64,000 bases of DNA, from positions 157,218 through 221,217 of the forward strand of contig CP006914.1 in NCBI GenBank assembly GCA_000503835.1, read 5' to 3'. The notes beneath the pieces were generated by a model, which saw nothing but the letters and a program-made list of their open reading frames with translations, had not been told where the DNA came from and did not search any database. Positions 6,379 through 40,865 of this stretch are shown one piece after another. Source of the DNA: a candidate division WWE3 bacterium RAAC2_WWE3_1. Lineage in GTDB: Bacteria > Patescibacteriota > WWE3 > UBA101185 > UBA10185. Made by a program: the position numbers and the translations under genes. Position 1 is the first letter of the stretch. The number at the start of each line of letters is the position of its first letter.

Positions 6379-7704
6379 ATGAGTACCGTAATAATTGAAG
6401 GCGGTTCTCCGTTGCTCGGTACTGTTCAGGTTTCTGGTACCAGAAATTCCGCGCTTAAGTTGATGGCCGCCGCCATGTTCTCGAACGACGATGTTATCCT
6501 TCAAAATGTTCCCAAAATCGATGTTGTAGAAGACGACATAAAAATGATTAGGATTCTTGGGGGTAGAGCTGATTGGGCAGGGGCAGGCCGGGTTATTCTT
6601 AACGGTTCCGATATAACTTCCTACGAGGTGCCTTTGGAAACGGGTTCAAAGTACAGAACGTCTCTGCTTATGGCGCCCCCTCTACTTTTCCGATTCGGAA
6701 AAGCTTCCATACCGAAATATAAGACACGCCTTAGTGTTCCTAGACCGGTGAACAGAATACTGGAAGTGTGGAAGAGTCTTGGTATAACCATTGAAGAAGA
6801 TGAGGATTACTATTTTATATCCTCCGCTAATGCCTCCTCCGGCCATGTTAATTTTAAGATACCGAGCCACATGTCAACCGATGTTTTAATAATGACGGCA
6901 GCCTTTCTCCCCGGCGAAACCGAAATAAACAATGCTTCGGAAGAAAGTGAAATAGATGATCTTATAGATCTTATGAATGCGATGGGCGGGAACGTCGTAC
7001 GTTCGGAGCCGCGCCTAATAAAAGTGAACGGAGTAAATATATTTAAAGGCGCGTCCGTGGAAGTACAGCCGGATAAAACCGAAGCGGTCGTGTTTTCAAT
7101 AGCGGCTTTGATTACCAAAGGAAACGTTGTAATTAAGAATATAAACAGAAATATTATGGTTCCGCTGGTAAATTTTTTAACGAAAATCGGAGCCAGGTAT
7201 GAGTTCGAGCAAAATTCTATAAAGATTTGGCGGCACGATGAGGAACTTCAGGCTATGAACCTTACTATTGCGCCGACCCCGGGTTTTGTACCCGACTGGC
7301 AATCTGCCGCGACACTCCTTTTAACCCAATGCAACGGGACATCATATATTCACGATACTGTGTACACTGACCGGTTCGGGTACACTAAGGATCTGAACAG
7401 AATGGGTGCTAAGATAGAATTATTAAGGCCTTCCGAGGCCGGCATCTCTTATGTTATTAGTGACGACACCTATGATGTTGACAGATTGGGGGAGCCGTAT
7501 ACGGTAGCCAAAACGAACGGTCCTGTAAAATTAAAAGGTGAAAAGATGAATATTACGGATTTTAGATATGGTACCGTGCATGTTCTGGCCGCGCTGGCCG
7601 CCGAGGGTCGAAGTGAGATTGAGGGGAGCGACATTCTTGATTGTTACATAGAAAATTTTATGCTGAAACTTAAAAATTTAGGAGCGAAGATATGGGATCA
7701 ATAG
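6379..7704 (+). CDS. murA: UDP-N-acetylglucosamine 1-carboxyvinyltransferase
   Basis: EPSP-synthase-fold N-terminus GGSPLLGTVQVSGTRNSALKLMAAA typical of MurA. 441 aa. Confidence 0.88.
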   Translation: MSTVIIEGGSPLLGTVQVSGTRNSALKLMAAAMFSNDDVILQNVPKIDVVEDDIKMIRILGGRADWAGAGRVILNGSDITSYEVPLETGSKYRTSLLMAPPLLFRFGKASIPKYKTRLSVPRPVNRILEVWKSLGITIEEDEDYYFISSANASSGHVNFKIPSHMSTDVLIMTAAFLPGETEINNASEESEIDDLIDLMNAMGGNVVRSEPRLIKVNGVNIFKGASVEVQPDKTEAVVFSIAALITKGNVVIKNINRNIMVPLVNFLTKIGARYEFEQNSIKIWRHDEELQAMNLTIAPTPGFVPDWQSAATLLLTQCNGTSYIHDTVYTDRFGYTKDLNRMGAKIELLRPSEAGISYVISDDTYDVDRLGEPYTVAKTNGPVKLKGEKMNITDFRYGTVHVLAALAAEGRSEIEGSDILDCYIENFMLKLKNLGAKIWDQ

Positions 7705-8795
7705 GAATAATGGTGGATCTTTTATTTTTATTTGCTGCGGGATTACTTTCTTTTGTACTGTATCCCGTTTGGATAAATTTTGTTTATAAATTTCAGATGG
7801 GGGAAGAAGTACGTGAAGATGCGCCTAAGACACATTTACTGAAGATCGGTACCCCGACAATGGGTGGTCTGGTCCTGGTGTCGGTGGTTGCCGTTTTGAC
7901 TTTGCTGTTCAACCGCTCCCGAACCCAAACTCTGCTCCCTATATTTGTTGCTCTGATGGCCGGATTGCTGGGACTTTTTGAAGATTTTACCAAGGTATAC
8001 AGAAAATCCGGACTGCCGGGATTTTTTGAGTACCACTTCCGCGGAGTTTTTAAAAGAAAAAACGTACATCCGAAAGGAATTTTGGGTTTTATTTTAAAGC
8101 CGTGGCTGTATTTCAAGGAATTTTGGCGCATTGTGGGAAGTACTGATGCGAGCGGTATGCAGACGTACAAAAAATTTATAATCCAGGGTCTGATCGGAGG
8201 TTTTGTAGCTTACTGGGTGTATTTCAAACTGGGGTGGGACTATCTCTGGTTTCCATTGATAGGAGATGTACATATAGGTTTCTTTTATCCGATTGTTGTA
8301 TTTTTACTGTTTATAGTTATATTGAACGCCGTAGCTTTTACCGACGGCCTTGACGGTTTGGCCGGAGGGCTTTCGTTATTCGCATTCATATCCTTTTGGG
8401 CTGTGTCACGGGTGCTCGGGTACAATTCGATTGCGATATTTTGTGCCACTTTTGCAGGTGCCTTACTTCCCTTTTTGTATTTTAATGTTTATCCCGCGAG
8501 GATATTTATGGGAAATGTGGGGTCGCACGTTCTGGGCGGTACACTGGCGTTGCTGGCGGTTTTCCTGCATCGTGAGGTAGCCTTCCTTTTAATCGGCGCC
8601 GTATTTTTATTCGATGGGATAAGCAGTCCTCTCCAGCAGCTTTCGGTGAAGCTTACAAAAAAGAGGCTGTTCCGTTTTGCTCCCGTTCACCACCATTTCG
8701 AACTACTCGGCTGGCCCGAGACAAAAGTTACCCTGAGATTCTGGCTATTCGGCGCATTTTTCGCTTTCGCCGGAATTTTCATTGCCCTGATGTAA
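7692..8795 (+). CDS. mraY: Phospho-N-acetylmuramoyl-pentapeptide transferase
   Basis: NAVAFTDGLDGLAGG and HHHFELLGW motifs, polytopic membrane protein. Confidence 0.92.
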   Translation: MGSIGIMVDLLFLFAAGLLSFVLYPVWINFVYKFQMGEEVREDAPKTHLLKIGTPTMGGLVLVSVVAVLTLLFNRSRTQTLLPIFVALMAGLLGLFEDFTKVYRKSGLPGFFEYHFRGVFKRKNVHPKGILGFILKPWLYFKEFWRIVGSTDASGMQTYKKFIIQGLIGGFVAYWVYFKLGWDYLWFPLIGDVHIGFFYPIVVFLLFIVILNAVAFTDGLDGLAGGLSLFAFISFWAVSRVLGYNSIAIFCATFAGALLPFLYFNVYPARIFMGNVGSHVLGGTLALLAVFLHREVAFLLIGAVFLFDGISSPLQQLSVKLTKKRLFRFAPVHHHFELLGWPETKVTLRFWLFGAFFAFAGIFIALM

Positions 8796-8800
8796 GAATT

Positions 8801-9967
8801 ATGAAACCAAAAACTGTCCCTACAATGAGTAAAAAAGACAGATCCTTCGTGTTCCTGATACTGGGTTTTCTTCTCTTTGGAATAATTATTATTGCTGATT
8901 CCACAATTATTCACTCCGACAGTTTGTACAACGATCCATATAGATTTGTATTTCTTCAGGTTGGGTGGGTTCTCATGGGTTTGTTGGGGTTCTTTTTTTT
9001 CTATAAGCACGATTACAAAAAAATAGATAAAATTGCAGGGCTGATGTTCGGTGTGACCGTTATTTTTCTGTTGCTGTTGGCTTTCGTTGCGGTTCTTCCG
9101 TGCTCATCCGATATATTTTTCGCGCCCTGTATAAACGGTGCAAACCGGTGGTTTTACCTTAACGCCCCGCCCCTGCCGAAGTTGCCTTTACTTGGTGTTG
9201 TGGGATTTCAGCCGGGTGAGCTGGCCAAGCTCACATTAATAATGTATCTGGGAATAATGCTCCCAAAAAAAATACAGGAAAACAGAAACGTATTTAGTGT
9301 GTACGCGGTAGTAACGGGCCTCTTATTTTTACTCGTGATAGCACAGCCTAATATGTCTACAGCTGTCATGGTCGCGGCTATAGGAACTGTTGTATATTTT
9401 TCTTCCGGTGCTGCCGTCAAACCCCTGCTGGTTGTTGCCCCCGCAGCGCTCCTGTTGGGTGTTCTACTAATACTCAGTTCGCCGTACCGAAGAGAAAGGT
9501 GGCTTACCCAATTAAGAGGCTCCGGCAGTAACGACCGGGACGAGGGATATCACATAAAGCAGGTTCAGATCGCGCTTGGCTCGGGCGGCCTTTTCGGAGT
9601 GGGGTTCGGACAATCCCGCCAAAAGTATTATTACCTTCCCGAGGTTGCTTCAGACTCGATATTCGCGATAATAGGAGAGGAGTTCGGGTTTTTAGGTACT
9701 GCCTTGGTGATAGCGGCCTTTTCTTATTTAATTTATAGGGGATTCGAGATAGCCAAAAATGCAAAAACACTGAGAGGACGGTTGCTGGCGTCGGGTGTTA
9801 CTTCCTGGATAGGTCTCCAGTTTTTTGTGAACATCGGTGCCATGACACAACTTTTACCTTTGACCGGCGTCCCGATACCTTTGATATCTTATGGCGGGTC
9901 AAGCATGGTCTTCAGTTTGATGGGACTTGGCATCTTGGCTAATATTGGTAAGGAGACTTTAAAATGA
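8801..9967 (+). CDS. ftsW: SEDS-family peptidoglycan glycosyltransferase FtsW/RodA
   Basis: 10-TM profile and C-terminal PLISYGGSSMVFSLMGLGIL motif. Confidence 0.9.
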   Translation: MKPKTVPTMSKKDRSFVFLILGFLLFGIIIIADSTIIHSDSLYNDPYRFVFLQVGWVLMGLLGFFFFYKHDYKKIDKIAGLMFGVTVIFLLLLAFVAVLPCSSDIFFAPCINGANRWFYLNAPPLPKLPLLGVVGFQPGELAKLTLIMYLGIMLPKKIQENRNVFSVYAVVTGLLFLLVIAQPNMSTAVMVAAIGTVVYFSSGAAVKPLLVVAPAALLLGVLLILSSPYRRERWLTQLRGSGSNDRDEGYHIKQVQIALGSGGLFGVGFGQSRQKYYYLPEVASDSIFAIIGEEFGFLGTALVIAAFSYLIYRGFEIAKNAKTLRGRLLASGVTSWIGLQFFVNIGAMTQLLPLTGVPIPLISYGGSSMVFSLMGLGILANIGKETLK

Positions 9968-11079
9968 AAATCGTTATTACGGGAGGACATCATAGCTCGG
10001 CATTACCGGTTATCGACCAGTTCAGGTCGAAATATTCCGGTACGGAAATTTACTGGTTTGGGCACCGTCGTTCTTTGGCTAGCGATAAAAATGACACGCT
10101 GGAGTTTAAAGAAATTACAGCGCTGGGCATTCCTTTTTATAATCTGCAGGCAGGGAAAGTTTATAAAACATTTAATATAGTGCGTCTGCTCAAAGTTCCG
10201 TTCGGATTTATACAGGCTTTCAGGTGGTTGTTAAAAATAAAACCCGACGTTATTCTTTCGTTCGGTGGTTACCTGGCGGTTCCTACAGTAATTTCAGGAT
10301 GGTTTCTGGGTATCCCTTCCATTACTCACGAACAGACGGTTGTAGCGGGATACGCCAACATGCTTCTTTCCAAATTCGTAAAAAAAATATGTATCGGTTG
10401 GAAAGATTCGGAAAAGTTCTTTCCTATCGGAAAAATAATATATTCAGGTGTCCCCCTTAGAAAAGCAATATTTGAAATAGGATCCGATTCGTTCAGTTCT
10501 GCCAACAATCTCCCGACTATATATATAACAGCAGGTAAGACCGGTTCTCATACGATAAACGAAATCGTCAAGGAGGCGCTTCCGGAGCTCTTGTCCGTTT
10601 GTAATGTCATTCACCAGACCGGCGACCATTCCAAATATCATGATTATGAACAGTTGGAGTCGATATATAAAGAAGTCGATAGACTCGCGAACGGCAAATA
10701 CTATTTAAGAAAGTTCTTGCTGGACGAAGAGATCGGGGAAGCTTTCAACAGAGCGAGCTTGGTCGTATCCCGGGCAGGAGCGCACACCGTCACCGAGCTT
10801 TTGGCGCTGGAAAAGCCATGCGTTCTTATCCCAATACCTTGGGTGAGTCACGACGAACAAAAAGAAAATGCTCTAATACTTGAGAAATACGGACTCGCTG
10901 AGATTTTAGAGGAAAAAGATCTGAACGAAGATACCTTTTTTTCCCTGATACAAAAAGTGCTGGGCCACCTCCAGAACTATAAACTTGAGGACAGAGAGGC
11001 CGCGAAACTGGTGAATCTAAATGCCGCAGAAATAATTGCCGATGAAACATTTAAACTTACACAAAGAAACAACAAGTAG
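9964..11079 (+). CDS. murG: UDP-GlcNAc:lipid I N-acetylglucosaminyltransferase
   Basis: N-terminal ITGGHHSSALPV and C-terminal GAHTVTELLALEKPCVLIP...HDEQKENA (GT28 fold). Confidence 0.9.
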   Translation: MKIVITGGHHSSALPVIDQFRSKYSGTEIYWFGHRRSLASDKNDTLEFKEITALGIPFYNLQAGKVYKTFNIVRLLKVPFGFIQAFRWLLKIKPDVILSFGGYLAVPTVISGWFLGIPSITHEQTVVAGYANMLLSKFVKKICIGWKDSEKFFPIGKIIYSGVPLRKAIFEIGSDSFSSANNLPTIYITAGKTGSHTINEIVKEALPELLSVCNVIHQTGDHSKYHDYEQLESIYKEVDRLANGKYYLRKFLLDEEIGEAFNRASLVVSRAGAHTVTELLALEKPCVLIPIPWVSHDEQKENALILEKYGLAEILEEKDLNEDTFFSLIQKVLGHLQNYKLEDREAAKLVNLNAAEIIADETFKLTQRNNK

Positions 11080-11893
11080 ACATACACGTCCGGTACAGAC
11101 CAGCGGAAATCAAATTCTACTTAATAAAATAAGGAATCGGCGCAGAGGGATAAGGAACCCGCGTGTAATTGCGAGAAAGTATAGAATTTTCTTTAAAATT
11201 GGGGTCGTTTTGCTGGTCTTGGGATCTTTAGGTTACCTTTCCTACAAATATATCTATCTCAGCCCGAAGTTTTCTGTTAAGACCGTTTCCGTGGTGGGCG
11301 GGGGAAAGTTTGTTAATCTTCAGGACTTTAGAACTATTTCGGAACAGAAAACATTAGGACAAAGTATTTTTTCGGTCGATCCAAAGGAGCTGGAGAAGTC
11401 GCTTAAATCCAATTTCCTGGGTGCGAAAAATGTGGAAATGTCTTTGGACTATCCGGATAATCTGGTAATCAAGGTAGAGGAAAGATTACCTGTTGCTGTA
11501 GTAACCTCGGGAAAAAAGGACGCTGTACACTATTTGATAGATAACGAGGGGTATATTTTGGGCGAGGTGTCGGAAGAATTTATGAACCTTCCGAAGATAA
11601 TTTATGAAGGTGATATGAAAGTGGGTTCGTTCCTGGACGATAGAGTTGTTCCTGTAAGCATTGAAATACTTTCGGAAATAGAGAAAGCCGGTCTGAATGT
11701 GAGCAGTATCAGCTTTCGTGAGAGGTACTCAAAGCTGTACCTGGGCGCTACCGAGGTATATCTGAGCAACATGAAGGGCGTCGGGGAGTCTGTCCGAAAA
11801 CTCGAAAGACTGTATAAAAACCTGCTTCTTGAGGGAAAATCGGTAATAAAAATTGATTTACGATATGATAAAGTAATAGTATTATATGAGTAG
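11036..11893 (+). CDS. ftsQ: Cell division protein FtsQ/DivIB (POTRA)
   Basis: Basic cytoplasmic tail, single TM (IGVVLLVLGSLGYL), then a POTRA-like domain. Position between murG and ftsA supports the call. The true start may be slightly downstream. Confidence 0.7.
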   Translation: MPMKHLNLHKETTSRHTRPVQTSGNQILLNKIRNRRRGIRNPRVIARKYRIFFKIGVVLLVLGSLGYLSYKYIYLSPKFSVKTVSVVGGGKFVNLQDFRTISEQKTLGQSIFSVDPKELEKSLKSNFLGAKNVEMSLDYPDNLVIKVEERLPVAVVTSGKKDAVHYLIDNEGYILGEVSEEFMNLPKIIYEGDMKVGSFLDDRVVPVSIEILSEIEKAGLNVSSISFRERYSKLYLGATEVYLSNMKGVGESVRKLERLYKNLLLEGKSVIKIDLRYDKVIVLYE

Positions 11894-11907
11894 CTTTTAA
11901 CCACATT

Positions 11908-13164
11908 ATGCCCAAAGAAAAGATAATAACAGGAATAGACGTAGGTTCAACCAAAGTAGGTACGACTATAGCTTCGGTGTCCGAATCAAGAATTTCGGTA
12001 ATAGGTGTTTCCGGGGAAGTTCCATCTAAAGGCGTAAATAAAGGAAATGTGGTAGATATCGACAGCGCCGTCGAGGCGATAGCAGCCAGCATTGAAAAGG
12101 CGGAACGCATGGCCGGAGTTTCTGTTTCCAGCGCTTTTGTCACCATAAACGGCAGTCACGTTGAGACATTGAATTCTCACGGAGTTGTGGCAGTTTCCCC
12201 CAATCAGACGGATGAGATAAGCAAAGAAGATGTTTCCCGCGTCATAGAGGCCGCTCAGGCAGTGTCACTTCCTTCTACGCGCCAGGTTATTCACGTAATT
12301 CCCCGCGATTTTTCAATCGATTCCCAGGAAGGCATTAAAGACCCTGTCGGTATGTCGGGGGTACGTTTAGAAGTGGAAACCAACATAATACACGGTGCTT
12401 CAATTGCTTTGAGGAATATCGCGAGATGCGTAAATCAGGTGGGGGTGAACGTGGATGAGATGGTCTACGCCGGGCTTGCATCCGCCGAAGCTGTCCTGAC
12501 CGATACCGAAAAAGAACTCGGAACTTTACTGGTCGATATAGGCGGAGGGACTACATCAATGATTGCTTTCCTGGATGGCAGTCCGGTTCATTCCGCAGTT
12601 TTGCCGATCGGAGGAAAATTGATAACCAGCGATTTGGCGATAGGGCTAAGGTCGCGCCTGGAGGATGCGGAAAGAATAAAAATAAGGCTGAGCAATGAAG
12701 CTGTTCTCGCAAAAAATACCGATACCGTGAGGAAGGACGAGGACTTTGATGTTTCAGAGTTCGGGCTGGAAATAGACAGGTTGCCCCGCCAGATGCTTTA
12801 TAAAATATTAGACGCGCGCCTTGAAGAAATTTTCCGTCTCATTGCGCTGGAAGTAACAAAAGTTAATTTAAACGGCAAACTTCCTGCAGGAGTTGTTGTC
12901 ACGGGCGGCGGAGCTCTTACTGCCAATGTTGAGAGAAGCGCAAAAGTGAATTTGAAAATGCCCGTACGTCTGGGAATTCCCAGAGGGGTTACCGGATTAA
13001 TTGATGAAATTCAGGGTCCCTCATCTGCCGCGGGTGTCGGCGCTGTGCTTTACGGTGTAAAGCTTTTCAGAGGCAGTCAGCTGTTGTCATTTGATGACAG
13101 ACGGGGTAATATGAATAAAAGCTTTTCGAAGTTTGTTGACAAATTAAAATCTTTCCTGCCCTAA
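11908..13164 (+). CDS. ftsA: Cell division protein FtsA
   Basis: Actin-fold phosphate-1 motif ITGIDVGSTKVG, DIGGGTT, and GVVVTGGGAL. Confidence 0.9.
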   Translation: MPKEKIITGIDVGSTKVGTTIASVSESRISVIGVSGEVPSKGVNKGNVVDIDSAVEAIAASIEKAERMAGVSVSSAFVTINGSHVETLNSHGVVAVSPNQTDEISKEDVSRVIEAAQAVSLPSTRQVIHVIPRDFSIDSQEGIKDPVGMSGVRLEVETNIIHGASIALRNIARCVNQVGVNVDEMVYAGLASAEAVLTDTEKELGTLLVDIGGGTTSMIAFLDGSPVHSAVLPIGGKLITSDLAIGLRSRLEDAERIKIRLSNEAVLAKNTDTVRKDEDFDVSEFGLEIDRLPRQMLYKILDARLEEIFRLIALEVTKVNLNGKLPAGVVVTGGGALTANVERSAKVNLKMPVRLGIPRGVTGLIDEIQGPSSAAGVGAVLYGVKLFRGSQLLSFDDRRGNMNKSFSKFVDKLKSFLP

Positions 13165-13204
13165 AAAATTTAAATACCAAAAATAAATTTGGTATAGTGT
13201 TGCA

Positions 13205-14392
13205 ATGCAAGTTAAACCTGAGATAGAACGCTTTGCAAAAATTCGCGTTGTCGGAGTCGGAGGTGCCGGCGGTAATGTAATAAACTCCATGATCGATTCA
13301 AATCAGATCAGAGGTGTAGAATTTATCGCAATAAACACCGACGCTCAGGATCTCTCCATAAATAAAGCAGTAATAAAAATACCCATCGGTCAGGAACTTA
13401 CCCAGGGATTGGGTGCGGGTTCAAATCCCGAAATAGGCAAAAAAGCGGCTGAGGAATCCATAGATGTGATAAAAAGCAATCTCGAAGGAGCAAACATGGT
13501 GTTCATTACAGCCGGTCTTGGCGGTGGAACGGGCACGGGAGCCTCTCCTACAGTTGCAAGAATCGCCAAAGAGTCGGGCGCCCTTACTATTGGTGTAGTT
13601 ACTAAACCGTTCAATTTTGAGGGAATACAGAGAATGAGGGCCGCTGACAGAGGAATGATGGAGCTCAGAAAAGAAGTTGACGCATTAATCACCATACCCA
13701 ATCAAAAATTATTAGAAGTGGCCGACGAAGACATGTCTATTATCGAGGCATTCAGGTTGTCGGACAGTGTCCTGAACCAGGGTGTCCAGGGAATCTCGGA
13801 TCTCATCGTTATGCCGGGGTTAATCAATGTGGATTTCGCAGACGTAAAAACAATTATGAAGGACGCCGGAACTGCATTGATGGGAATAGGTATCGGCACG
13901 GGAGAGAACAGAGCGGAGGTAGCGGCTAAAGCTGCGGTATCGTCACCTTTGCTGGAACAATCGGTCGAGGGGGCTAAAGGCATACTATTTAACATCTCGG
14001 GCGGCCCTGACCTTACAATGAGAGAAGTGGATAGGGCGGCAAATATTATCAGAGGGATAGCCAGTGAGGAAGCAGATATAATATTCGGAACATCTATCGA
14101 CGATGAACTGACTGGACAGTTAAAGATAACGGTCATCGCAACAGGATTTGAAGTTCCGGAGGAAGATGATTCGATGGCCGGGTACGTCGAGAAACACTAT
14201 GGCCAGATCGCGAAAAAAGATAAACCCGAAATACCCTTTCAACAAAATGTTCATCGCGAACCAAAGACGGAAACTCCGCCTGAGGAGAAGAAACAGCCGA
14301 AACTTCCCTCCGAGATGTGGAAGCCCGAAGATGCTGAAGACGAAGACTACGGCACGGGTTTCGATATCCCTACTTTTTTGAGGCAGAAATAA
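13205..14392 (+). CDS. ftsZ: Cell division GTPase FtsZ
   Basis: Tubulin signature GVGGAGGNVIN, GGGTGTGASP, and NVDFADV (T7 loop). Confidence 0.95.
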   Translation: MQVKPEIERFAKIRVVGVGGAGGNVINSMIDSNQIRGVEFIAINTDAQDLSINKAVIKIPIGQELTQGLGAGSNPEIGKKAAEESIDVIKSNLEGANMVFITAGLGGGTGTGASPTVARIAKESGALTIGVVTKPFNFEGIQRMRAADRGMMELRKEVDALITIPNQKLLEVADEDMSIIEAFRLSDSVLNQGVQGISDLIVMPGLINVDFADVKTIMKDAGTALMGIGIGTGENRAEVAAKAAVSSPLLEQSVEGAKGILFNISGGPDLTMREVDRAANIIRGIASEEADIIFGTSIDDELTGQLKITVIATGFEVPEEDDSMAGYVEKHYGQIAKKDKPEIPFQQNVHREPKTETPPEEKKQPKLPSEMWKPEDAEDEDYGTGFDIPTFLRQK

Positions 14393-23504: not shown

Positions 23505-23577
23505 GGGTCCGTGGCTCAGTGGTTAGAGCGCTCGGTTCACATCCGAGAGGTCCCTGGTTCGATCCCAGGCGGGCCCA
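23505..23577 (+). tRNA. tRNA-Val (anticodon CAC)
   Basis: Hand-folded cloverleaf. Acceptor GGGTCCG/CGGGCCC, D-stem GCTC/GAGC, anticodon stem CTCGG/CCGAG with loop TTCACAT, T-arm CCTGG-TTCGATC-CCAGG, discriminator A. A genomically encoded CCA lies at 23578-23580. Confidence 0.85.
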
Positions 23578-23683
23578 CCATTTTTAGCAACGTTAACCCT
23601 CGCCGTCTTTATATGCTAATATCCCCCATACACAGTTAGTATATTTAGTATTGACTCTCACTAATTTTTAGCAAAGAATTATT

Positions 23684-25246
23684 ATGGGACAAAATATGGA
23701 TAATAGATCATACTCGGATTTTAATAACTCAGACAACGACCCTGGCGGCCTGCCAAATGATTCTGCTTTTCCTATCTCAATGCCCGATATAGATAATATG
23801 GAATTTTTCAGGACTCCCTCTACTAACGGCAGGAAGTCCAAAGCCTGGCATGAGAAAGAGATTCCCATTAGAATAAATTCTTTTAATAAACCGGAAGGAA
23901 TAGAGATAAATATTGAGTCGACACTAATAAAAGAACACAGGCTTGTAAAATACCCTGACGATATCTGGCAGGACTATCCGGAGGAAAACAAAGCTAAGTT
24001 AATAGATAATATAGCCTACATTTTTACAGCTCACTTGCCGATGCTGCTAAAGGGCAACATTAGGCTGGAATACAACACCGGGTATCCGCAGTGCTTTTCA
24101 TGGTCACAGCATTCTTTTATGAGGCATCTGCCCCTGTATTGGTATTACTACAGAAAAAGGGGCATAGGGGTGGTGCCGATGCTTAAAACACTCTTGAATT
24201 CAAGAGCGTATTTTTGTGACACCACGGACTCTCCTCCCGAGTTTCCTATAAGCACCGATGAGAATGTTATTCTTCCTTTTACTTTCGGTAAAGACAGTTT
24301 TTTAACTTATCAGGTTTGTCGTGAATTGAAACTTAATCCCATTTTGGTGTTTTTTAACGACCCTACATTTTGGGGTTTTGAGGGTTACCACAAAAAGATT
24401 TTGTTCGACGATTTTTTGAAAATTAATAAACACGAACATTATTTCCTGGAAAATCCCCTGGAAGGTTTAAGAGATAATGGGGACGGCTGGTTTGGGTGGG
24501 AATTGAGTCTCACCTCTTGGGCGTTAATGTGTTTACCTCTTGCGTACAAATATCAGGCAGGTTACATACTTTTCAGCAATGAAAAAAGCGTCAACGCATT
24601 TTATTATGACGACTCCGGTTTCAAAGTTGTCCCCGAGTATGAGCAGGCTTATCAGGCAACAGAAGAAATGTCCTTGCTCACGCAGGCTATGTCCGAAGGC
24701 GAGCTTTACACATCTACCTTTTTACAGGGATTAAACGATTTGGGAATAGTCGCAATTCTGAACGAAAATTACGCGAAAGAGACTTTTCCCTATCTTATGT
24801 CCTGTTGGGACGGTAGTGAAGAAAAGAGATGGTGTGGTACGTGCACCAAATGCGCAAGACTGTACCTTTATCTTTCGGCAATGGGCGTAAATCCATTGGA
24901 AGAGGCCGGTTTCGAGGACGATATGTTCAGTGAGGACAAGATAGATCTGTACAATGCCTTCGGAGAGAAGGCCTCAGGTCTGGGCTGGGATTCTTTCGGT
25001 TTGAACAAAGACGAGCAGGAACTGTCTTTTTACATCTGCGCAAAATCGGGTAATCAGGCACCGCTCGTGCAAATATTCAGGCAGTCAGAAGCGTATCTGA
25101 GAGTAGAACAGAACCTACCGGCGCTTGTAGATGAATATCTTGGTCTTCATGAGGAACATTCATCGCCGTTGATATGGAGAACACAAATAAATGAAATATT
25201 CGACAAAGCGCTGAAGAAGGTAAGAGAAAGAGTACTTAGTTTATAA
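23684..25246 (+). CDS. QueC-like PP-loop ATPase with zinc ribbon and ~200-aa N-terminal extension (function unknown)
   Basis: PP-loop-like FTFGKDS (cf. SGGxDS). C-terminal SCWDGSEEKRWCGTCTKCARL = C-x9-C-x2-C-x2-C, the QueC-type zinc motif (SCY...CGxCxxCxLR). 520 aa, far longer than QueC (~220 aa). Confidence 0.55.
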   Translation: MGQNMDNRSYSDFNNSDNDPGGLPNDSAFPISMPDIDNMEFFRTPSTNGRKSKAWHEKEIPIRINSFNKPEGIEINIESTLIKEHRLVKYPDDIWQDYPEENKAKLIDNIAYIFTAHLPMLLKGNIRLEYNTGYPQCFSWSQHSFMRHLPLYWYYYRKRGIGVVPMLKTLLNSRAYFCDTTDSPPEFPISTDENVILPFTFGKDSFLTYQVCRELKLNPILVFFNDPTFWGFEGYHKKILFDDFLKINKHEHYFLENPLEGLRDNGDGWFGWELSLTSWALMCLPLAYKYQAGYILFSNEKSVNAFYYDDSGFKVVPEYEQAYQATEEMSLLTQAMSEGELYTSTFLQGLNDLGIVAILNENYAKETFPYLMSCWDGSEEKRWCGTCTKCARLYLYLSAMGVNPLEEAGFEDDMFSEDKIDLYNAFGEKASGLGWDSFGLNKDEQELSFYICAKSGNQAPLVQIFRQSEAYLRVEQNLPALVDEYLGLHEEHSSPLIWRTQINEIFDKALKKVRERVLSL

Positions 25247-26471
25247 ACTCATCGTACAAAAGGTCCCAAAGCTCCGTGTAACCCCCATCGTAGCCTAATG
25301 CCCATATCCCCACGCCCATCAGGCTGTTGTTCTTAATGAGCTCATACTTAACAGCGAGCGACCTTTGGTTCTCGTAAAAAACCTGTCTCTGCTGTCCTGT
25401 TTCTTCGCTGATGTAACTAAAATAGGGCACCTGTCCCAGAGCATCCCACATGACTTTGGGCTTGATATTAATGAGCAAGTTCATGATAGTTTCATAAGAT
25501 TGGGATTGAGAAAAACCGATATTTTCGTTGCCGTCGATCCTCTCAGCGTATTTTTCAGGATTGCTCACGACCCAGTTATAGCCATAATACGGAACACCGA
25601 GCAACAGTTTATTCGGGGGCACTATAGCCAGATAGTCCCTTAGCATTGTCTCTATATCGTATTCGGAGTGAACATCTTTACCTCCGATGGGAGCAACGGG
25701 ACCCGCCGTGTCGGATGTCGGTCTGTGAAAGTCGTAGCCCATGATAAAAATGCCGTCACTATTTTTTGCCAGATTTTCAAGGTCTGAACTCACGCGTTCT
25801 TTGACAGGCGAATCGGCAAAAGCGGACACGACCACACCCGAGTTGCCGTATTTTTTGTCGAGTTTTTCATTTGTGTACTTGGTAAATTCAGAAAATTTTA
25901 CGGCCATTTCTTTTCCTGTATATTCAGCGTATTCAAAATTCAAATTGACGTCGGTAATACCTTTTTCATCAAGCTCGGTGTAAACATTTGTCAAAAAGGT
26001 GTCCCAGCATTCCCGGCAATTTAGAAAAGCATCGTTGTTTTCATCGCTGTGAGCTACCAATGTGAGAGCGAAATTCACCCCGAATTTTTTGCTGGCCTGA
26101 ATAAGCTGCGGAATCTTTTCGTTTTCCTTCCAATTCCGATATCCGGGTTCGGCAATCCATATTCCGTCTGCATCCTCAACGGTTTTTACAAAATTACCTT
26201 CGCCGTTTATGTAAATACCGAAATAGGCGATATCGGTCAACCTGTCCAACTCGATAAATTCCATATTTTCCAGATTCCAGTAGGGCAGATATCCGTAAAT
26301 ACGATAAGCCGGCTTTTTCCGTTCTTTAAATAGTGAAAGTATGTCGAATGAGCTTGAGTACGGTGTCAGAGGGTGATTTTTGTAATCCAATTTACTTATA
26401 TACAGGCTAAAACCGCCCAGTATCGTAACGACAAGGAATAGTACCAGAATTATTTTTATCTCGGATCTCAC
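25236..26471 (-). CDS. Membrane-anchored glycoside hydrolase family 18-like protein
   Basis: N-terminal TM. YGYLPYWN, DVNLNFEYAEY (cf. DxxDxDxE catalytic motif) and C-terminal GVGIWALGYDG are characteristic of GH18. Confidence 0.6.
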   Translation of the reverse strand: MRSEIKIILVLFLVVTILGGFSLYISKLDYKNHPLTPYSSSFDILSLFKERKKPAYRIYGYLPYWNLENMEFIELDRLTDIAYFGIYINGEGNFVKTVEDADGIWIAEPGYRNWKENEKIPQLIQASKKFGVNFALTLVAHSDENNDAFLNCRECWDTFLTNVYTELDEKGITDVNLNFEYAEYTGKEMAVKFSEFTKYTNEKLDKKYGNSGVVVSAFADSPVKERVSSDLENLAKNSDGIFIMGYDFHRPTSDTAGPVAPIGGKDVHSEYDIETMLRDYLAIVPPNKLLLGVPYYGYNWVVSNPEKYAERIDGNENIGFSQSQSYETIMNLLINIKPKVMWDALGQVPYFSYISEETGQQRQVFYENQRSLAVKYELIKNNSLMGVGIWALGYDGGYTELWDLLYDEFIN

Positions 26472-26551: not shown

Positions 26552-27772
26552 GTGGCTATTCTAAATATTCGTAGGTACAAATTTTGGATCATCCTGCTGT
26601 TCTTATTTTCAAGTACGGTGTTAGTTTCGGCACTTGTTTTTTTAAGAGATTACATAGAGTACCGTGCAGAAAAAAAGGCAATAGAAGCGGAACAAAGACA
26701 GGTATACGTTGATCGTTTAGGGACGGCGGGGTCTTCGGGCGACTGCGCCGAGGTACAGGAAGTCGAGTATTACACGTACTCAGGTGACGATTCTCTTTGG
26801 AAAGAAAACAATAAGTTCGGTATATATATTTATGCGGAAGTAGACGAATTTTTTGACCGAGCCGAAGAACTTGTCAATTCCGGTAAGGGCGATTGGGGTT
26901 ATGTACTAATCCCTTACAACGTAAAGGACAAAAGTTTCGAAAAATGGAATAACGTTTTTAAAAAACTTAACGACAAACACTTGATCCCGGTCTTTCAACT
27001 ACACGATATAGATCCGGATGACTACAAAGACCAGACCGAGGAGGCCGCCGCATTTCTGAACAGATTCGTCTGGCCCCTAAGATACAGGTACATTAGCGTT
27101 TACAACGAACCTAATGACCGTAAGTTTTGGTACGATAGGGTAGATCCCGAGGAATATGCGAAAATACTGGATTATACAATTGATGTTTTTAAAGAAGAAA
27201 ACCCGGATTTTTTTATGATGAACGGTGCCTTTAACGTAACAGCTCCGTCCGATGATAATCACATGGATTCTTTAGAGTACATGCGGCGCATGGAAGTTTC
27301 GGAGCCCGGTATTTTTAAAAAACTCGATGGTTGGGCTTCGCATTCGTATCCTCAACCTAACTTTTCGGGTGACCCGTACAACGAAGGAAGGTGGAGTATA
27401 AAAGCGTACGAAACTGAACTAAGTTATCTTAAGAAGGTACTTAAGATCGGCAAGGACCTGCCCGTCTTTATTACCGAGACAGGCTGGGCCCACGCGGAAG
27501 GCACGGATTACAACAGTAATTACCTGCCAGTCGCCACAATTTCGGAATATTTTGAAAAAGCATACGAAGATGTGTGGCTTAAGGATGGGCGCGTCAGGGC
27601 AGTGATGCCGTTCACGATAAGATATGATCCTCCTTTTGACCATTTTTCATGGCTTAACGCCGACAATGTTCCTTACGAACATTTTGATGTGATTAGGGAT
27701 ATGAAAAAGGTAGAGGGAAAACCTCCCGCACTTGTCGTAAATAAAATTAAGGTCGGGGGTTGCGGACAATGA
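26552..27772 (+). CDS. Membrane-anchored clan GH-A (GH5/GH39-like) glycoside hydrolase
   Basis: N-terminal TM. Acid/base-like YNEPN and nucleophile-like VFITETGW motifs spaced as in (beta/alpha)8 clan A hydrolases. Confidence 0.5.
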   Translation: MAILNIRRYKFWIILLFLFSSTVLVSALVFLRDYIEYRAEKKAIEAEQRQVYVDRLGTAGSSGDCAEVQEVEYYTYSGDDSLWKENNKFGIYIYAEVDEFFDRAEELVNSGKGDWGYVLIPYNVKDKSFEKWNNVFKKLNDKHLIPVFQLHDIDPDDYKDQTEEAAAFLNRFVWPLRYRYISVYNEPNDRKFWYDRVDPEEYAKILDYTIDVFKEENPDFFMMNGAFNVTAPSDDNHMDSLEYMRRMEVSEPGIFKKLDGWASHSYPQPNFSGDPYNEGRWSIKAYETELSYLKKVLKIGKDLPVFITETGWAHAEGTDYNSNYLPVATISEYFEKAYEDVWLKDGRVRAVMPFTIRYDPPFDHFSWLNADNVPYEHFDVIRDMKKVEGKPPALVVNKIKVGGCGQ

Positions 27773-38246: not shown

Positions 38247-38722
38247 AGAAAACTACAGTTATTTTTATCGTTATATTAATAGTTATTTTGGTTATCGTGC
38301 TTAAAAATAGTCTTACCGTAAATATAGGCCCTAAAGATATAGGTACGCCTGCCGGCACAAACGGTTCTTTCCAAAACACAAATAGCAACAACGGCTTGGA
38401 AACAAAAGAAAGTAACGACGGTCCGGTATCCGTCACCGTTACGCCTCTTGATGTAGGGGATAACGCATCCCTATGGAGTTTTGACATCGCGCTAAACACT
38501 CATTCTGAGGAGATTGGAGAAGATCTGACTGTTGTGTCCGTGCTTATAGATGACGGAGGAAAGACATACAGACCTATATCGTGGGAAGGTTCAGCTCCGG
38601 GAGGCCACCATCGTAGCGGTGTTCTAAAATTTAGTGCTATATCACCCAGACCTAATACTCTGGAGTTAAAAATAAACAATGTCGGCGGAATTTCCGAAAG
38701 GAGCTTTAAGTGGGAGCTTTAA
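38243..38722 (+). CDS. Membrane-anchored beta-rich protein with His-rich patch (APGGHHRSG)
   Basis: N-terminal TM, then a predicted beta-sandwich-like extracytoplasmic domain. No family assigned. Confidence 0.45.
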   Translation: MKKTTVIFIVILIVILVIVLKNSLTVNIGPKDIGTPAGTNGSFQNTNSNNGLETKESNDGPVSVTVTPLDVGDNASLWSFDIALNTHSEEIGEDLTVVSVLIDDGGKTYRPISWEGSAPGGHHRSGVLKFSAISPRPNTLELKINNVGGISERSFKWEL

Positions 38723-38729
38723 AAAGTTT

Positions 38730-39323
38730 ATGAGTGAAAAGAAAGTCATTGTAATAGTTTCCGTAATCACGATAGCTTTGCTCATAGTGCCTACCTTTCT
38801 AATTGGCGGCAATAAAGGTGACAACTCTTCTAAAACTTCGACGGAGGCCGCATCTCTTAACGAGTTAGTTGGAAGATCTGCGGCTGATTTTACCCTGGAA
38901 AGTTATAATGGCGACAAAACAACTCTGAGTAGTCTTAAAGGTAAAAACGTAATCCTCTTTTTTAATGAAGGTCTCATGTGCTATCCGGCTTGTTGGGATC
39001 AGATTGCCGCTTTCGGGAAGGACACCGAATTTGCAGATAAAAATACGGTGGTATTAACTATTGTGACCGATTCAAAAAAAGATTGGGAAGGTGCAGTTGA
39101 AAAAATGCCGGAGCTTACCGGGGCAATTGTCTTACTCGATACTAACCGAAAGGTATCCGTTTCGTATAAAATGCTATCGCTTCCTTCCTCGATGCATAGA
39201 GGCCAGACTCCGGGGCATACTTATGTAGTTATTGATGCCGAGGGTATTGTTCGCTATGTTAAAGATGATGTTCAAATGGCTGTCAGAAATCAGGAGTTAC
39301 TGGCGGAGATAGGAAAACTATAA
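38730..39323 (+). CDS. Membrane-anchored thioredoxin-fold protein, Sco1/SenC- or redoxin-like (CxxxC)
   Basis: Start moved to ATG at 38730, after the upstream stop. TM anchor. GKNVILFFNEGLMCYPACW has C-x3-C in the Sco1-type position, with a conserved His about 85 aa downstream (SSMHRGQTPGH). Confidence 0.65.
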   Translation: MSEKKVIVIVSVITIALLIVPTFLIGGNKGDNSSKTSTEAASLNELVGRSAADFTLESYNGDKTTLSSLKGKNVILFFNEGLMCYPACWDQIAAFGKDTEFADKNTVVLTIVTDSKKDWEGAVEKMPELTGAIVLLDTNRKVSVSYKMLSLPSSMHRGQTPGHTYVVIDAEGIVRYVKDDVQMAVRNQELLAEIGKL

Positions 39324-39326
39324 TCT

Positions 39327-40193
39327 ATGGAACTTTTAATTAGTGCATCATTTATAGCATCGTTCTTTGCGGGAATCGCAGCACTTTTTGCCCCCTGCTG
39401 TATCACTGTTCTCCTGCCGACTTATTTCGCTTCCATTTTTAAGCAGAAATCTACCGTGTTTTTGATGACCTTTGTTTATTTTCTCGGTATCCTGTCGATC
39501 TTTCTTCCTATCGGTCTCGGAGTTTCATTTCTCACCCAGCTTTTCAGCCAATACCATGACACCATTTTCCTCATCGGCGGAATATTTTTGATATTTCTGG
39601 GGATGACTTTACTTCTCGGACAACAAATGTCTTTACCTTTCAGCGTCCACCCGAAATTAAAAGGGCAGGATTTTGTGTCGGTTTATGTCTTAGGTGTATT
39701 TTCAGCCGTCGCAACCACCTGCTGCGCCCCCGTACTAGCAGGAGTCCTGACTTTGTCGGCGCTTCCCGGATCGGTGTTCTTAGGCGGAGTTTATACTCTT
39801 GCTTATGTACTGGGCATGGTCCTGCCTCTTTTCATTATCGCCTTTACTTTAGACAAGGTCGATTTTACTCAGAAGTTCGTTGCCTTTAGAAAGAGAATCT
39901 CTTACTCTGTGCTCGGTCAAAAGGTAAGTCTGACTTTTGCTAATCTATTCTCCGGGCTAATGTTCCTGGTTCTGGGCATTGTTATAATTTACCTTGCCAA
40001 GACAAGCCAGCTGACATCCCACTCCTCATACCAGGTTTCGTTGAATATATACCTGACAAAATTTATTAACGGGATAGGACGGTTTACGCAGGTTATTCCC
40101 GAGGCAGGATGGGCTGCCATTTTCATCCTTGTCACACTGTTCGTTACTTTTACTGCCATCAGACAATTTATAAATTTAAAGAAAAGGAAGTGA
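39327..40193 (+). CDS. CcdA/DsbD_2-like transmembrane protein with two MerT-like vicinal-Cys helices
   Basis: 8 predicted TM helices. FAPCCITVLLP and ATTCCAPVLAGVL lie in separate helices. Confidence 0.6.
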   Translation: MELLISASFIASFFAGIAALFAPCCITVLLPTYFASIFKQKSTVFLMTFVYFLGILSIFLPIGLGVSFLTQLFSQYHDTIFLIGGIFLIFLGMTLLLGQQMSLPFSVHPKLKGQDFVSVYVLGVFSAVATTCCAPVLAGVLTLSALPGSVFLGGVYTLAYVLGMVLPLFIIAFTLDKVDFTQKFVAFRKRISYSVLGQKVSLTFANLFSGLMFLVLGIVIIYLAKTSQLTSHSSYQVSLNIYLTKFINGIGRFTQVIPEAGWAAIFILVTLFVTFTAIRQFINLKKRK

Positions 40194-40199
40194 TTTTGA

Positions 40200-40865
40200 A
40201 TGAATAAAAACGGACTTATTGCAACTTTGGGCACCGGGCTGATTTTGGGTTTAGTTATACTTATAAGCAATTTTAATATTCGGATAGATGTAAATAGTAA
40301 CGATGGCCGGGAGCCTATCGGCAGACAGATGACACCGCAGGCACAGGATGACTCTATGGCGGGTCATCACGGAGGTGGCACACCGGCCGACGCCACTCTT
40401 TTTAACGACTTGGTCGGTAAAACGGCGCCTGACTTTACGTTGGAAAGCTACGATGGAAAAAAGATAACTCTTAGTGAGCTGAAGGGTCAGAACGTCATTC
40501 TTTTCTTTAATGAGGGCCTCATGTGCTACCCGGCCTGCTGGAACCAGATTTCTGCTTTCGGCAAGGATACTGCATTGCAAAGTAAGGCTGTGGTACTAAA
40601 CATCACGGTCGACCCCAAAAATAACTGGAAACAGGCCGTAAATAAAATGCCTGAACTTGCCGGTGCCACGGTACTTTTTGACAGCAGTAGGGAAGTCTCT
40701 AAGAAATACGGAGTTTTAACTCTGCCGTCATCAATGCACAAAGGTCAATTTCCGGGGCACAGCTATGTAATAATAGACAAAGAAGGAACAGTTAAATTTA
40801 TCAGGGACGATGTTTCTATGGCGGTAAGAAATGATGAGCTATCTGCGGAACTGGACAAGTTGTAA
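40200..40865 (+). CDS. Sco1/SenC- or redoxin-like thioredoxin-fold protein, paralog of 38730-39323, with His/Met-rich N-terminal segment
   Basis: About 60% identical to the upstream paralog over the folded domain, with the same LMCYPACW and SSMHKGQFPGH motifs. N-terminal segment DSMAGHHGGG. Confidence 0.65.
   Translation: MNKNGLIATLGTGLILGLVILISNFNIRIDVNSNDGREPIGRQMTPQAQDDSMAGHHGGGTPADATLFNDLVGKTAPDFTLESYDGKKITLSELKGQNVILFFNEGLMCYPACWNQISAFGKDTALQSKAVVLNITVDPKNNWKQAVNKMPELAGATVLFDSSREVSKKYGVLTLPSSMHKGQFPGHSYVIIDKEGTVKFIRDDVSMAVRNDELSAELDKL

Follow-up and report, generated by a model that had tools for sequence, protein, structure and literature searches.

MurL is a peptide epimerase powered by ATP, and to our knowledge no other enzyme of this type has been characterized. 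The enzyme depends on ATP and Mg2+, releases AMP and works unidirectionally, converting only L to D, on the C-terminal residue of its substrate (PMC5808125). It has been reported to lack recognizable domains, and adenylation of the alpha-carboxylate of Glu has been proposed for it (PMC5808125, PMC8788868); its hosts belong to the Xanthomonadales, Actinobacteria and Alphaproteobacteria (PMC8788868). QueC and Cap9 also act via carboxylate adenylation, with the adenylate being resolved by a nitrogen nucleophile (PMC13329287). Canonical QueC is defined by three CDG-binding motifs, YxQxHxxE, VPxRN and YPDC (PMC13329287). Zinc sites have been described in both QueC and QatC (PMC13329287, PMC13279940), and QatC has a three-part architecture (PMC13279940). 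We found no paper in the searchable literature that names MurL and QueC together, and a 2026 survey of the QueC superfamily makes no mention of MurL, CPR or ATP-grasp partners.

Here, we analyze a gene in a 64-kb stretch of a candidate division WWE3 genome (the window), which an earlier note had described as a long QueC-like enzyme beside a tRNA gene and as a candidate modifier of tRNA, DNA or protein. As judged from sequence comparisons and a predicted structure, its product appears to be a distant relative of MurL that consists of three domains, has a QueC-type PP-loop core with a Cys4 site predicted to bind zinc and belongs to a family as yet without a name.

Gene and domain architecture

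The open reading frame occupies positions 23684..25246 of the + strand (stop codon included) and encodes 520 aa. We confirmed it as a real gene, its many homologs and well-predicted structure going far beyond chance. Both motifs that the earlier note had picked out in it lie where they were placed and are conserved across 37 homologs, the most distant of which shares 28% identity. A metagenome protein that is 100% identical to it begins at M5 and is 516 aa long. Because of this identical database protein and a promoter-like match upstream, the true start is probably the ATG at 23696, which would give a product of 516 aa. The promoter-like match stops 5 bases before the first ATG, and matches of this kind are no more numerous here than expected from shuffled sequence. 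Upstream, 104 bp separate the open reading frame from a tRNA gene.

23505..23580, + strand: tRNA-Val(cac), an adjacent gene judged to be outside the system
23651..23679, + strand: sigma-70-like promoter match TTGACT-17-AAGAAT (consensus match alone; weak evidence)

Alignments and an AF2 model of the protein (pLDDT 86.7, pTM 0.85) divide it into the following parts.

23684..23848, + strand: N-terminal tail (aa 1-55), variable, low-complexity and predicted to be disordered (pLDDT <50 for residues 1-49; unconserved in the 37-homolog alignment)
23852..24253, + strand: conserved N-terminal alpha/beta domain (aa 57-190, ~135 aa)
24254..24883, + strand: QueC-type PP-loop ATP-pyrophosphatase core (aa 191-400)
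24275..24298, + strand: PP-loop variant PFTFGKDS (aa 198-205), from alignments and a PP-loop profile match
24572..24580, + strand: S-N-E (aa 297-299), part of an F-S-N-E segment (aa 296-300), from alignments
24803..24853, + strand: Cys4 motif CWDGSEEKRWCGTCTKC (C374-x9-C384-x2-C387-x2-C390), from alignments
24884..25243, + strand: conserved C-terminal helical domain (aa 401-520, ~120 aa), from the alignment, the AF2 model, the structure match and Pfam MurL labels

The N-terminal extension of ~200 aa noted previously is confirmed and consists of ~55 variable, low-confidence residues followed by the conserved ~135-aa domain, in which Y90, P91, W95, T115 and P135 are invariant and H117 is nearly so. 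This domain matches in position both Pfam MurL_N and the N-terminal extension of QatC. The QueC-like Cys motif had been placed at the C terminus; the motif is indeed present, but it closes the QueC-like core and is followed by the helical domain of ~120 aa. Pfam MurL_epimerase_C and the C-terminal extension of QatC are the counterparts of this helical domain, in which E444 and F465 are invariant and Q445 is nearly invariant (>=90%).

In structure comparisons, the core fold is nearest to QueC and Cap9, and the best solved match over nearly the full length is QatC (9y02_B; Foldseek E 2e-6, 468 columns), which shares the same plan of an N-terminal extension, a QueC core and a C-terminal helical extension; the Foldseek TM-scores to QatC are just 0.39-0.46. 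The protein contains no RNA-binding domain.

Conserved motifs of the core

We compared motif conservation in two alignments, one of 37 homologs from the clade (28-84% identity) and one of 106 sequences from the superfamily. Among the 37 homologs, P198, F199, F201, G202, K203 and S205 of the PP-loop are invariant, while T200 and D204 are nearly so (>=90%). The loop reads T-F-G-K-D-S where the canonical form is SGGxDS, the second Gly being replaced by Phe, and the canonical SGGxDS occurs in 0/106 superfamily sequences. With a profile built from the superfamily alignment, PFTFGKDS aligns exactly with SGGKDS, the PP-loop of the solved enzymes MJ0690, TtuA and MnmA. Searching the PDB with the single protein sequence gave no match, and the superfamily profile gave marginal PP-loop matches only. 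As in the PP-loop ATP pyrophosphatase superfamily, an SGGxDS-type loop sits at the end of strand 1 in a Rossmann-like alpha/beta fold. PFTFGKDS is predicted, from these alignments, to be the binding site for the alpha- and beta-phosphates of ATP.

The Cys4 motif is embedded in S-C...R-W-C-x-x-C-x-K-C-x-R, and C374, R382, W383, C384, C387, C390 and R392 are invariant in the 37-homolog alignment. The pattern C-x(5-16)-C-x2-C-x2-C, with a variable first spacing, is found in 105/106 relatives. Conservation of the Cys residues extends across the 106 sequences: C374, C384 and C387 are invariant, as is G202, and C390 is conserved at >=90%, together with K203, S205, E300, Q321, S373 and W383. By analogy to QueC, Cap9 and QatC, the motif is predicted to form a structural Zn site.

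Within the clade, neither N299 nor E300 of the F-S-N-E segment varies, and conservation of E300 extends to the superfamily (>=90%). This segment may hold the place of the QueC VPxRN loop, an equivalence of position, and is a candidate for supplying a catalytic or Mg2+-binding residue.

Comparison with QueC, QatC and Cap9

The protein resembles QueC in having a zinc-type Cys4 motif that closes the core, C(x)8CxxCxxC in QueC versus C-x9-C-x2-C-x2-C here. It differs from QueC in length, being 2.4 times longer (the earlier note had estimated more than twice), with added N- and C-terminal domains. The search against the Pfam QueC model (PF06508) that the earlier note proposed gave a score of 11.4 bits (E 0.23) against a cut-off of 22, and the match covers the Cys-motif region only. 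None of the NCBIfam QueC models matched any of the 37 clade members, and the QueC substrate motifs YxQxHxxE, VPxRN and YPDC are present in 0/37 and 0/106 sequences. The QueC-like identity given to the protein thus stands for the fold and fails for the family. A weak Pfam match to DUF6395, again to the Cys-motif region only, was uninformative. The annotated ORFs of the window include no queuosine or archaeosine genes (queD, queE, queF, tgt), as noted previously, and no dpd genes; no such genes recur across 84 related loci either.

The earlier note had also raised recruitment to defense in the manner of QatC. D(x)4R(x)7WxR, one of the motifs specific to QatC, occurs in 0/106 sequences, PADLOC gave no match for 10 family members, and no QatA/B/D, CD-NTase, Cap10 or CBASS genes lie beside the gene in the window or in related loci. 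Cap9 of type IV CBASS is a minimal QueC-like protein of ~185 aa that keeps the QueC catalytic motifs and is encoded with a CD-NTase and Cap10, none of which is seen here. We therefore rejected membership in the QueC, QatC or Cap9 families, with profiles below cut-off and motifs absent, and, from the PADLOC result, a defense role. A mobile-element origin was rejected as well, because tblastn against phages and plasmids found no copies of the family.

Sequence relationship to MurL

By sequence, the nearest named family appears to be MurL, the peptidoglycan peptide epimerase. The query scores 18.4 bits (E 6e-4) against the NCBIfam MurL model NF041275, which also matches 32/37 clade members (best E 1.3e-11), 8/10 distant relatives and 6/6 proteins in a further set of relatives. 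The matches are collinear and sub-threshold, reaching profile positions 101-442 of 447, with MurL compared as a profile only. Scores among the relatives are at most ~40 bits, and the trusted equivalog cut-off is 700 bits. Because scores of 18-40 bits fall so far below 700, the family is not orthologous to MurL and would be a remote relative. Precomputed Pfam annotation contains weak matches to MurL_epimerase_C (PF26298) and MurL_N (PF26299) on 8 members; neither matches the query itself.

A further likeness to MurL lies in size (~447 aa, versus 445-520 aa in the family), and the use of ATP and Mg2+ by MurL, with release of AMP, fits a PP-loop adenylating enzyme. A QueC-type PP-loop core also fits the adenylation proposed for MurL, since QueC and Cap9 work through an adenylated carboxylate. 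Finally, MurL pairs with MurD2, a Mur ligase that adds L-Glu, and the family is likewise typically encoded beside an amino-acid ligase. The differences lie in partners, hosts and substrate. The partner here is a Ddl-like ATP-grasp ligase, with or without KamA, and not a Mur ligase: no Mur-ligase P-loop ORF, MurD2-type included, was found within 10 kb in 84 loci, and the precomputed neighbor lists contain no Mur_ligase Pfam. The family is carried by CPR bacteria and DPANN archaea, in contrast to the Xanthomonadales, Actinobacteria and Alphaproteobacteria that host MurL. The MurL substrate, UDP-MurNAc-dipeptide, is not possible for the archaeal carriers.

Distribution of the family

An indexed protein search returned 104-105 homologs or clusters, all labeled hypothetical. 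Exhaustive HMM searching retrieved 1436 representatives at E<=1e-3, mostly 440-470 aa long and spanning the whole profile, of which 164 remained at E<=1e-30; a scan of one genome per species yielded 158 loci. The closest relatives (86% identity) are from candidate division WWE3, and other CPR carriers include Gottesman-, Woese-, Roizman-, Shapiro-, Peregrini- and Magasanikbacteria and further CPR lineages. There are also many carriers among MAGs labeled Woesearchaeota, Aenigmarchaeota, Nanoarchaeota, Micrarchaeota, Iainarchaeum, Altiarchaeales and Bathyarchaeia. The family is confined to CPR bacteria and to MAGs of DPANN and other archaea. Archaea should lack murein. As many of the carriers are archaeal MAGs that are expected to be without it, the substrate cannot, in general, be that of MurL.

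Gene neighborhoods across relatives

The comparison of neighborhoods suggested in the earlier note revealed partners in other genomes: ATP-grasp ligases, KamA and second family paralogs. For this comparison, ORFs were called in 84 non-redundant loci and their neighbors clustered, with ATP-grasp and KamA proteins separated by seed searches. A Ddl-superfamily ATP-grasp ligase is encoded within 300 bp of the family gene in 27/84 loci and within 3 kb in 34/84, against a background of 3/514 ORFs located >5 kb away. The gap between the two genes is often 0-7 bp, or they overlap, and at times there are 2-3 tandem ligase copies. Nine of the 84 loci carry a KamA-family radical-SAM 2,3-aminomutase within 3 kb, and two (L065, L070) contain KamA-ATP-grasp fusions. 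PGM1/BesA-like ATP-grasp ligases lie 5' of the family gene in L001 and L024 and 3' of it in L027. In 23/84 loci, a second family paralog is adjacent. Counting ATP-grasp, KamA and second paralogs together, 53/84 loci contain one or more such partners within 3 kb. The clade of the window protein comprises 24 proteins, mostly from CPR (39-86% identity), with a ligase adjacent in 10/24 and KamA also present in 3 of these 10. We found no description in the searchable literature of a cassette of Ddl-like ATP-grasp and KamA, or of an aminomutase with an ATP-grasp protein in DPANN.

The ATP-grasp partners are members of the D-Ala-D-Ala ligase superfamily that match solved Ddl enzymes at ~94 bits, and they score 163-200 bits where the Ddl cut-off is 243. 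The N-terminal D-Ala1 motif of Ddl, GGxSxExxVS, is present in 0/48 of them; the partners of the window protein's clade have a conserved (A/E)(D/E)FD in its place. Because of these sub-cut-off scores and the absence of GGxSxExxVS, we take the partners to be ligases other than the cell-wall Ddl. We also considered whether the partner might be the cell's true D-Ala-D-Ala ligase, with the family enzyme supplying its D-Ala, and judged this unlikely on account of the scores, the missing motif and the tandem copies in archaeal MAGs. The KamA-family partners score 441 bits against the lysine 2,3-aminomutase model, and the aminomutases fall just under the cut-offs for lysine and glutamate 2,3-aminomutases.

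Local context in WWE3

In the window and in the three closest WWE3 relatives (L007-L009), the gene is solitary, with neither a ligase nor an aminomutase as neighbor, and the 64-kb window contains no ATP-grasp or KamA homolog anywhere. Synteny in these four genomes runs from LepB through tRNA-Val and the gene to a convergent GH18 gene, a glycosidase-like protein, a Wzx-like protein and Wzy_C, and a nucleotidyl transferase is also part of the local context.

26552-27772: conserved secreted glycosidase-like protein, function unassigned, beyond GH18

The window also holds a division and cell-wall cluster (MurA, MraY, FtsW, MurG, FtsQ, FtsA, FtsZ), and we therefore conclude that the host makes peptidoglycan.

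The tRNA gene had been read as a hint at function. Its adjacency is kept only in the WWE3 relatives L007 and L008 and is absent or different in at least 30 other loci, most loci having no tRNA nearby. In some other CPR loci, tRNA-Ile and tRNA-Val(tac) lie past the downstream ligase. As the adjacency is specific to the WWE3 lineage, the neighbor appears coincidental, and we rejected a functional tie to tRNA-Val.

Proposed function and alternatives

Our preferred reading, held tentatively and at slightly less than even chances, is that the protein is a MurL-like carboxylate-adenylating enzyme with a QueC fold that acts on an amino-acid or peptide product. The substrate would be an amino acid or short peptide, and not tRNA, DNA or a 7-deazaguanine base, because MurL is the nearest family and ATP-grasp and KamA genes are the neighbors elsewhere. 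From the gene context, we infer that the carboxylate to be activated is that of an amino acid or short peptide, produced by the ATP-grasp ligases and in some cases containing a beta-amino acid. In such a scheme, ATP would bind at the T-F-G-K-D-S PP-loop, and the carboxylate would be adenylated with release of PPi, a step suggested by the chemistry of QueC, Cap9 and MurL. The substrate would be one that is made or used by the non-canonical Ddl-superfamily ATP-grasp ligase, and in some lineages the KamA-type 2,3-aminomutase would supply a beta-amino acid. If the acyl-adenylate were resolved in the fashion of MurL, the alpha-proton would be lost and re-added, inverting the activated C-terminal residue from L to D, and hydrolysis to AMP would follow the epimerization. 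Resolution by C-alpha epimerization and hydrolysis is drawn from the MurL analogy; it is speculative and, although it is the outcome we favor, we regard it as possible but doubtful.

The main rival to this route keeps the adenylation step but ends in amide formation, in the manner of QueC and Cap9, with ammonia or an amine attacking the acyl-adenylate. The protein would then act as an amidase or ligase of carboxylates and might, for instance, amidate or extend the peptide from the ATP-grasp ligases. QueC and Cap9, the nearest to the core in fold, both use a nitrogen nucleophile (PMC13329287), and ligase-rich loci would suit a peptide-building pathway with another bond-forming step. Nevertheless, sequence profiles put the family closer to MurL than to QueC, neither a glutaminase nor an amidotransferase is a recurrent partner in the 84 neighborhoods and the QueC substrate motifs are missing, so we consider amide formation somewhat unlikely. 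For the WWE3 lineage, where the gene lies in the setting described above (GH18, the glycosidase-like protein at 26552-27772, a Wzx-like flippase, Wzy_C and a nucleotidyl transferase in the window and L007-L009), the protein might instead be a sugar-carboxylate amidotransferase or modifier that works like the PP-loop enzymes WbpG/WbuX and has as its target a uronic acid within a surface polysaccharide. One family member weakly matches WbuX (E 9e-4); no match to the WbpG/WbuX N-acetyl-sugar amidotransferase model reached the TIGR03573 cut-off with an LPS/O-antigen context. We hold this reading to be improbable.

Two further alternatives stay closer to the known roles of QueC-type proteins. A QueC paralog could make or transfer a 7-deazaguanine derivative, or another base modification, on tRNA or DNA, as the earlier note had proposed. 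The QueC-type fold and Cys4 site would fit this, as would the tRNA gene 104 bp upstream and the tRNA-Val genes near the cassette in L001, L010 and L024. The proposal is probably wrong given MurL as the nearest family, the amino-acid-ligase neighbors and the absent QueC motifs, and we rate it very improbable. An anti-phage role in which the protein, as QatC and Cap9 do, attaches a nucleobase to the N terminus of a partner would agree with QatC being the best solved near-full-length structural match and having the same three-part plan. This is extremely improbable in light of the negative PADLOC result, the absent QatC motifs, the lack of QatA/B/D or CBASS genes nearby and of phage or plasmid copies, the housekeeping synteny in small symbiont genomes and TM-scores that reach only 0.46.

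Returning to the MurL-like enzyme, its partners would fit a small-peptide pathway of CPR and DPANN in which Ddl-like ligases join L-amino acids, with or without a beta-amino acid from KamA, and the MurL-like enzyme uses ATP to invert or modify the C-terminal residue. We consider a pathway of this extent unlikely as a whole.

Implications

The family as such is unannotated and has a partner set unlike that of MurL, while still being a PP-loop enzyme akin to known adenylating ones. It would constitute a large unannotated sister family of MurL, with 1436 representative clusters, that is tied to amino-acid ligases in both radiations of ultra-small symbionts, CPR and DPANN, and family genes should no longer be called QueC or queuosine genes. 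The QueC-type PP-loop core with its predicted Cys4 zinc site offers a structural rationale for the adenylation mechanism proposed for MurL, and the small-peptide pathway, if real, would establish MurL-type epimerases as adenylating enzymes with a QueC fold. The pathway of ligase and epimerase, if it exists, would be a racemase-independent route to peptides containing D-residues and would explain D- and beta-amino-acid peptides in organisms with minimal metabolism and without classical racemases. Its product could feed the stem peptides of CPR cell walls, and in archaea that lack murein and a wall to build from it, it would be a new, uncharacterized peptide.

Ligase partners and fusions

The family gene (the MurL-like QueC-fold gene at 23684-25246 of the window, or its homologs in other loci, designated L001 and so on) recurrently neighbors, outside the window, genes for a Ddl-like ATP-grasp ligase and in some loci a KamA-type 2,3-aminomutase, and at two loci these are joined in one protein:

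L065 5750-7876 (-), KamA-type 2,3-aminomutase plus Ddl-like ATP-grasp ligase, 708 aa
L070 6518-8575 (+), the same combination, 685 aa

These fusions imply that the product of the aminomutase is used by the ligase. ATP-grasp proteins of about 765 aa, in which the ATP-grasp is confined to the C-terminal third and preceded by an N-terminal region of about 450 aa, are the directly upstream neighbors of the family gene at three further loci, and L001 carries ligases on both sides, with a Ddl-like ligase downstream and a PGM1/BesA-like pair upstream that has relatives in L024 and L027:

L044 3539-5845 (-), L049 7531-9837 (-) and L051 7540-9837 (-), ~765-aa ATP-grasp proteins
L001 7179-9966, tandem pair of PGM1/BesA-like (pre-ATP-grasp) ligase paralogs that directly precedes the family gene

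Other genes of the window

Adjoining the family gene is a convergent GH18 gene, whose 3' end shares 11 bases (25236-25246) with that of the family gene. The 406-aa protein encoded beyond it has no match in Pfam or NCBIfam, and its homologs lie near the family gene at 10 loci, including the distant Gottesmanbacteria-type L041, L045, L050 and L051.

6379-14392, MurA, MraY, FtsW, MurG, FtsQ, FtsA and FtsZ, in that order
25236-26471 (-), GH18 gene
26552-27772 (+), 406-aa protein with glycoside-hydrolase-like NEP and TETGW motifs

In the division and cell-wall cluster, the interval from murG to ftsQ contains none of murC/D/E/F, murB and ddl; this genome must therefore encode its Mur ligases and Ddl at other sites. 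Separately, 38679-40865 encodes a CcdA-type thiol-disulfide transporter between two paralogous membrane-anchored peroxiredoxin/thioredoxin-like proteins.

tRNA genes

Two separate contexts place a tRNA-Val gene close to the family gene: the WWE3 lineage with tRNA-Val(cac), and other CPR loci with tRNA-Val(tac). In the CPR loci of the first two lines below, the tRNA genes directly follow a cassette of the family gene and ATP-grasp, with or without KamA.

L001 12633-12802, L010 12518-12674 and L024 13554-13738, tRNA-Ile(gat)/tRNA-Val(tac) pair
L023 8024-8098, tRNA-Ile without tRNA-Val
L045 8519-8592 (Gottesmanbacteria contig), CUA-anticodon tRNA reported by ARAGORN as tRNA-Pyl

We treat the proximity of tRNA-Val in both contexts as coincidence, in small genomes dense in tRNA genes. 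The L045 tRNA, judging by its anticodon, is a possible amber suppressor.

Gottesmanbacteria-type loci and paired paralogs

In the Gottesmanbacteria-type clade, a ~213-aa spermidine-synthase-like methyltransferase-fold protein and SecA are among the conserved neighbors, observed at the position just before the family gene in L028, L029, L030, L032, L034, L036, L037, L039, L042, L047 and L048. On the 1.2-Mb Gottesmanbacteria contig of L005, a separate, true QueC-domain gene lies ~10 kb from the family gene, adjoining a pyridoxal-dependent decarboxylase and a methyltransferase:

L005 1-508 (-), QueC-domain (PF06508) gene
L005 11444-12817 (-), adjacent paralog pair of the family

Such pairs occur at 22 further loci (for example, L030, L032, L056, L058, L070, L073 and L086); the two genes converge in loci of the Gottesmanbacteria type, and archaeal loci have them in tandem. 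This pairing suggests that the paralogs form heteromers or catalyze two successive steps.
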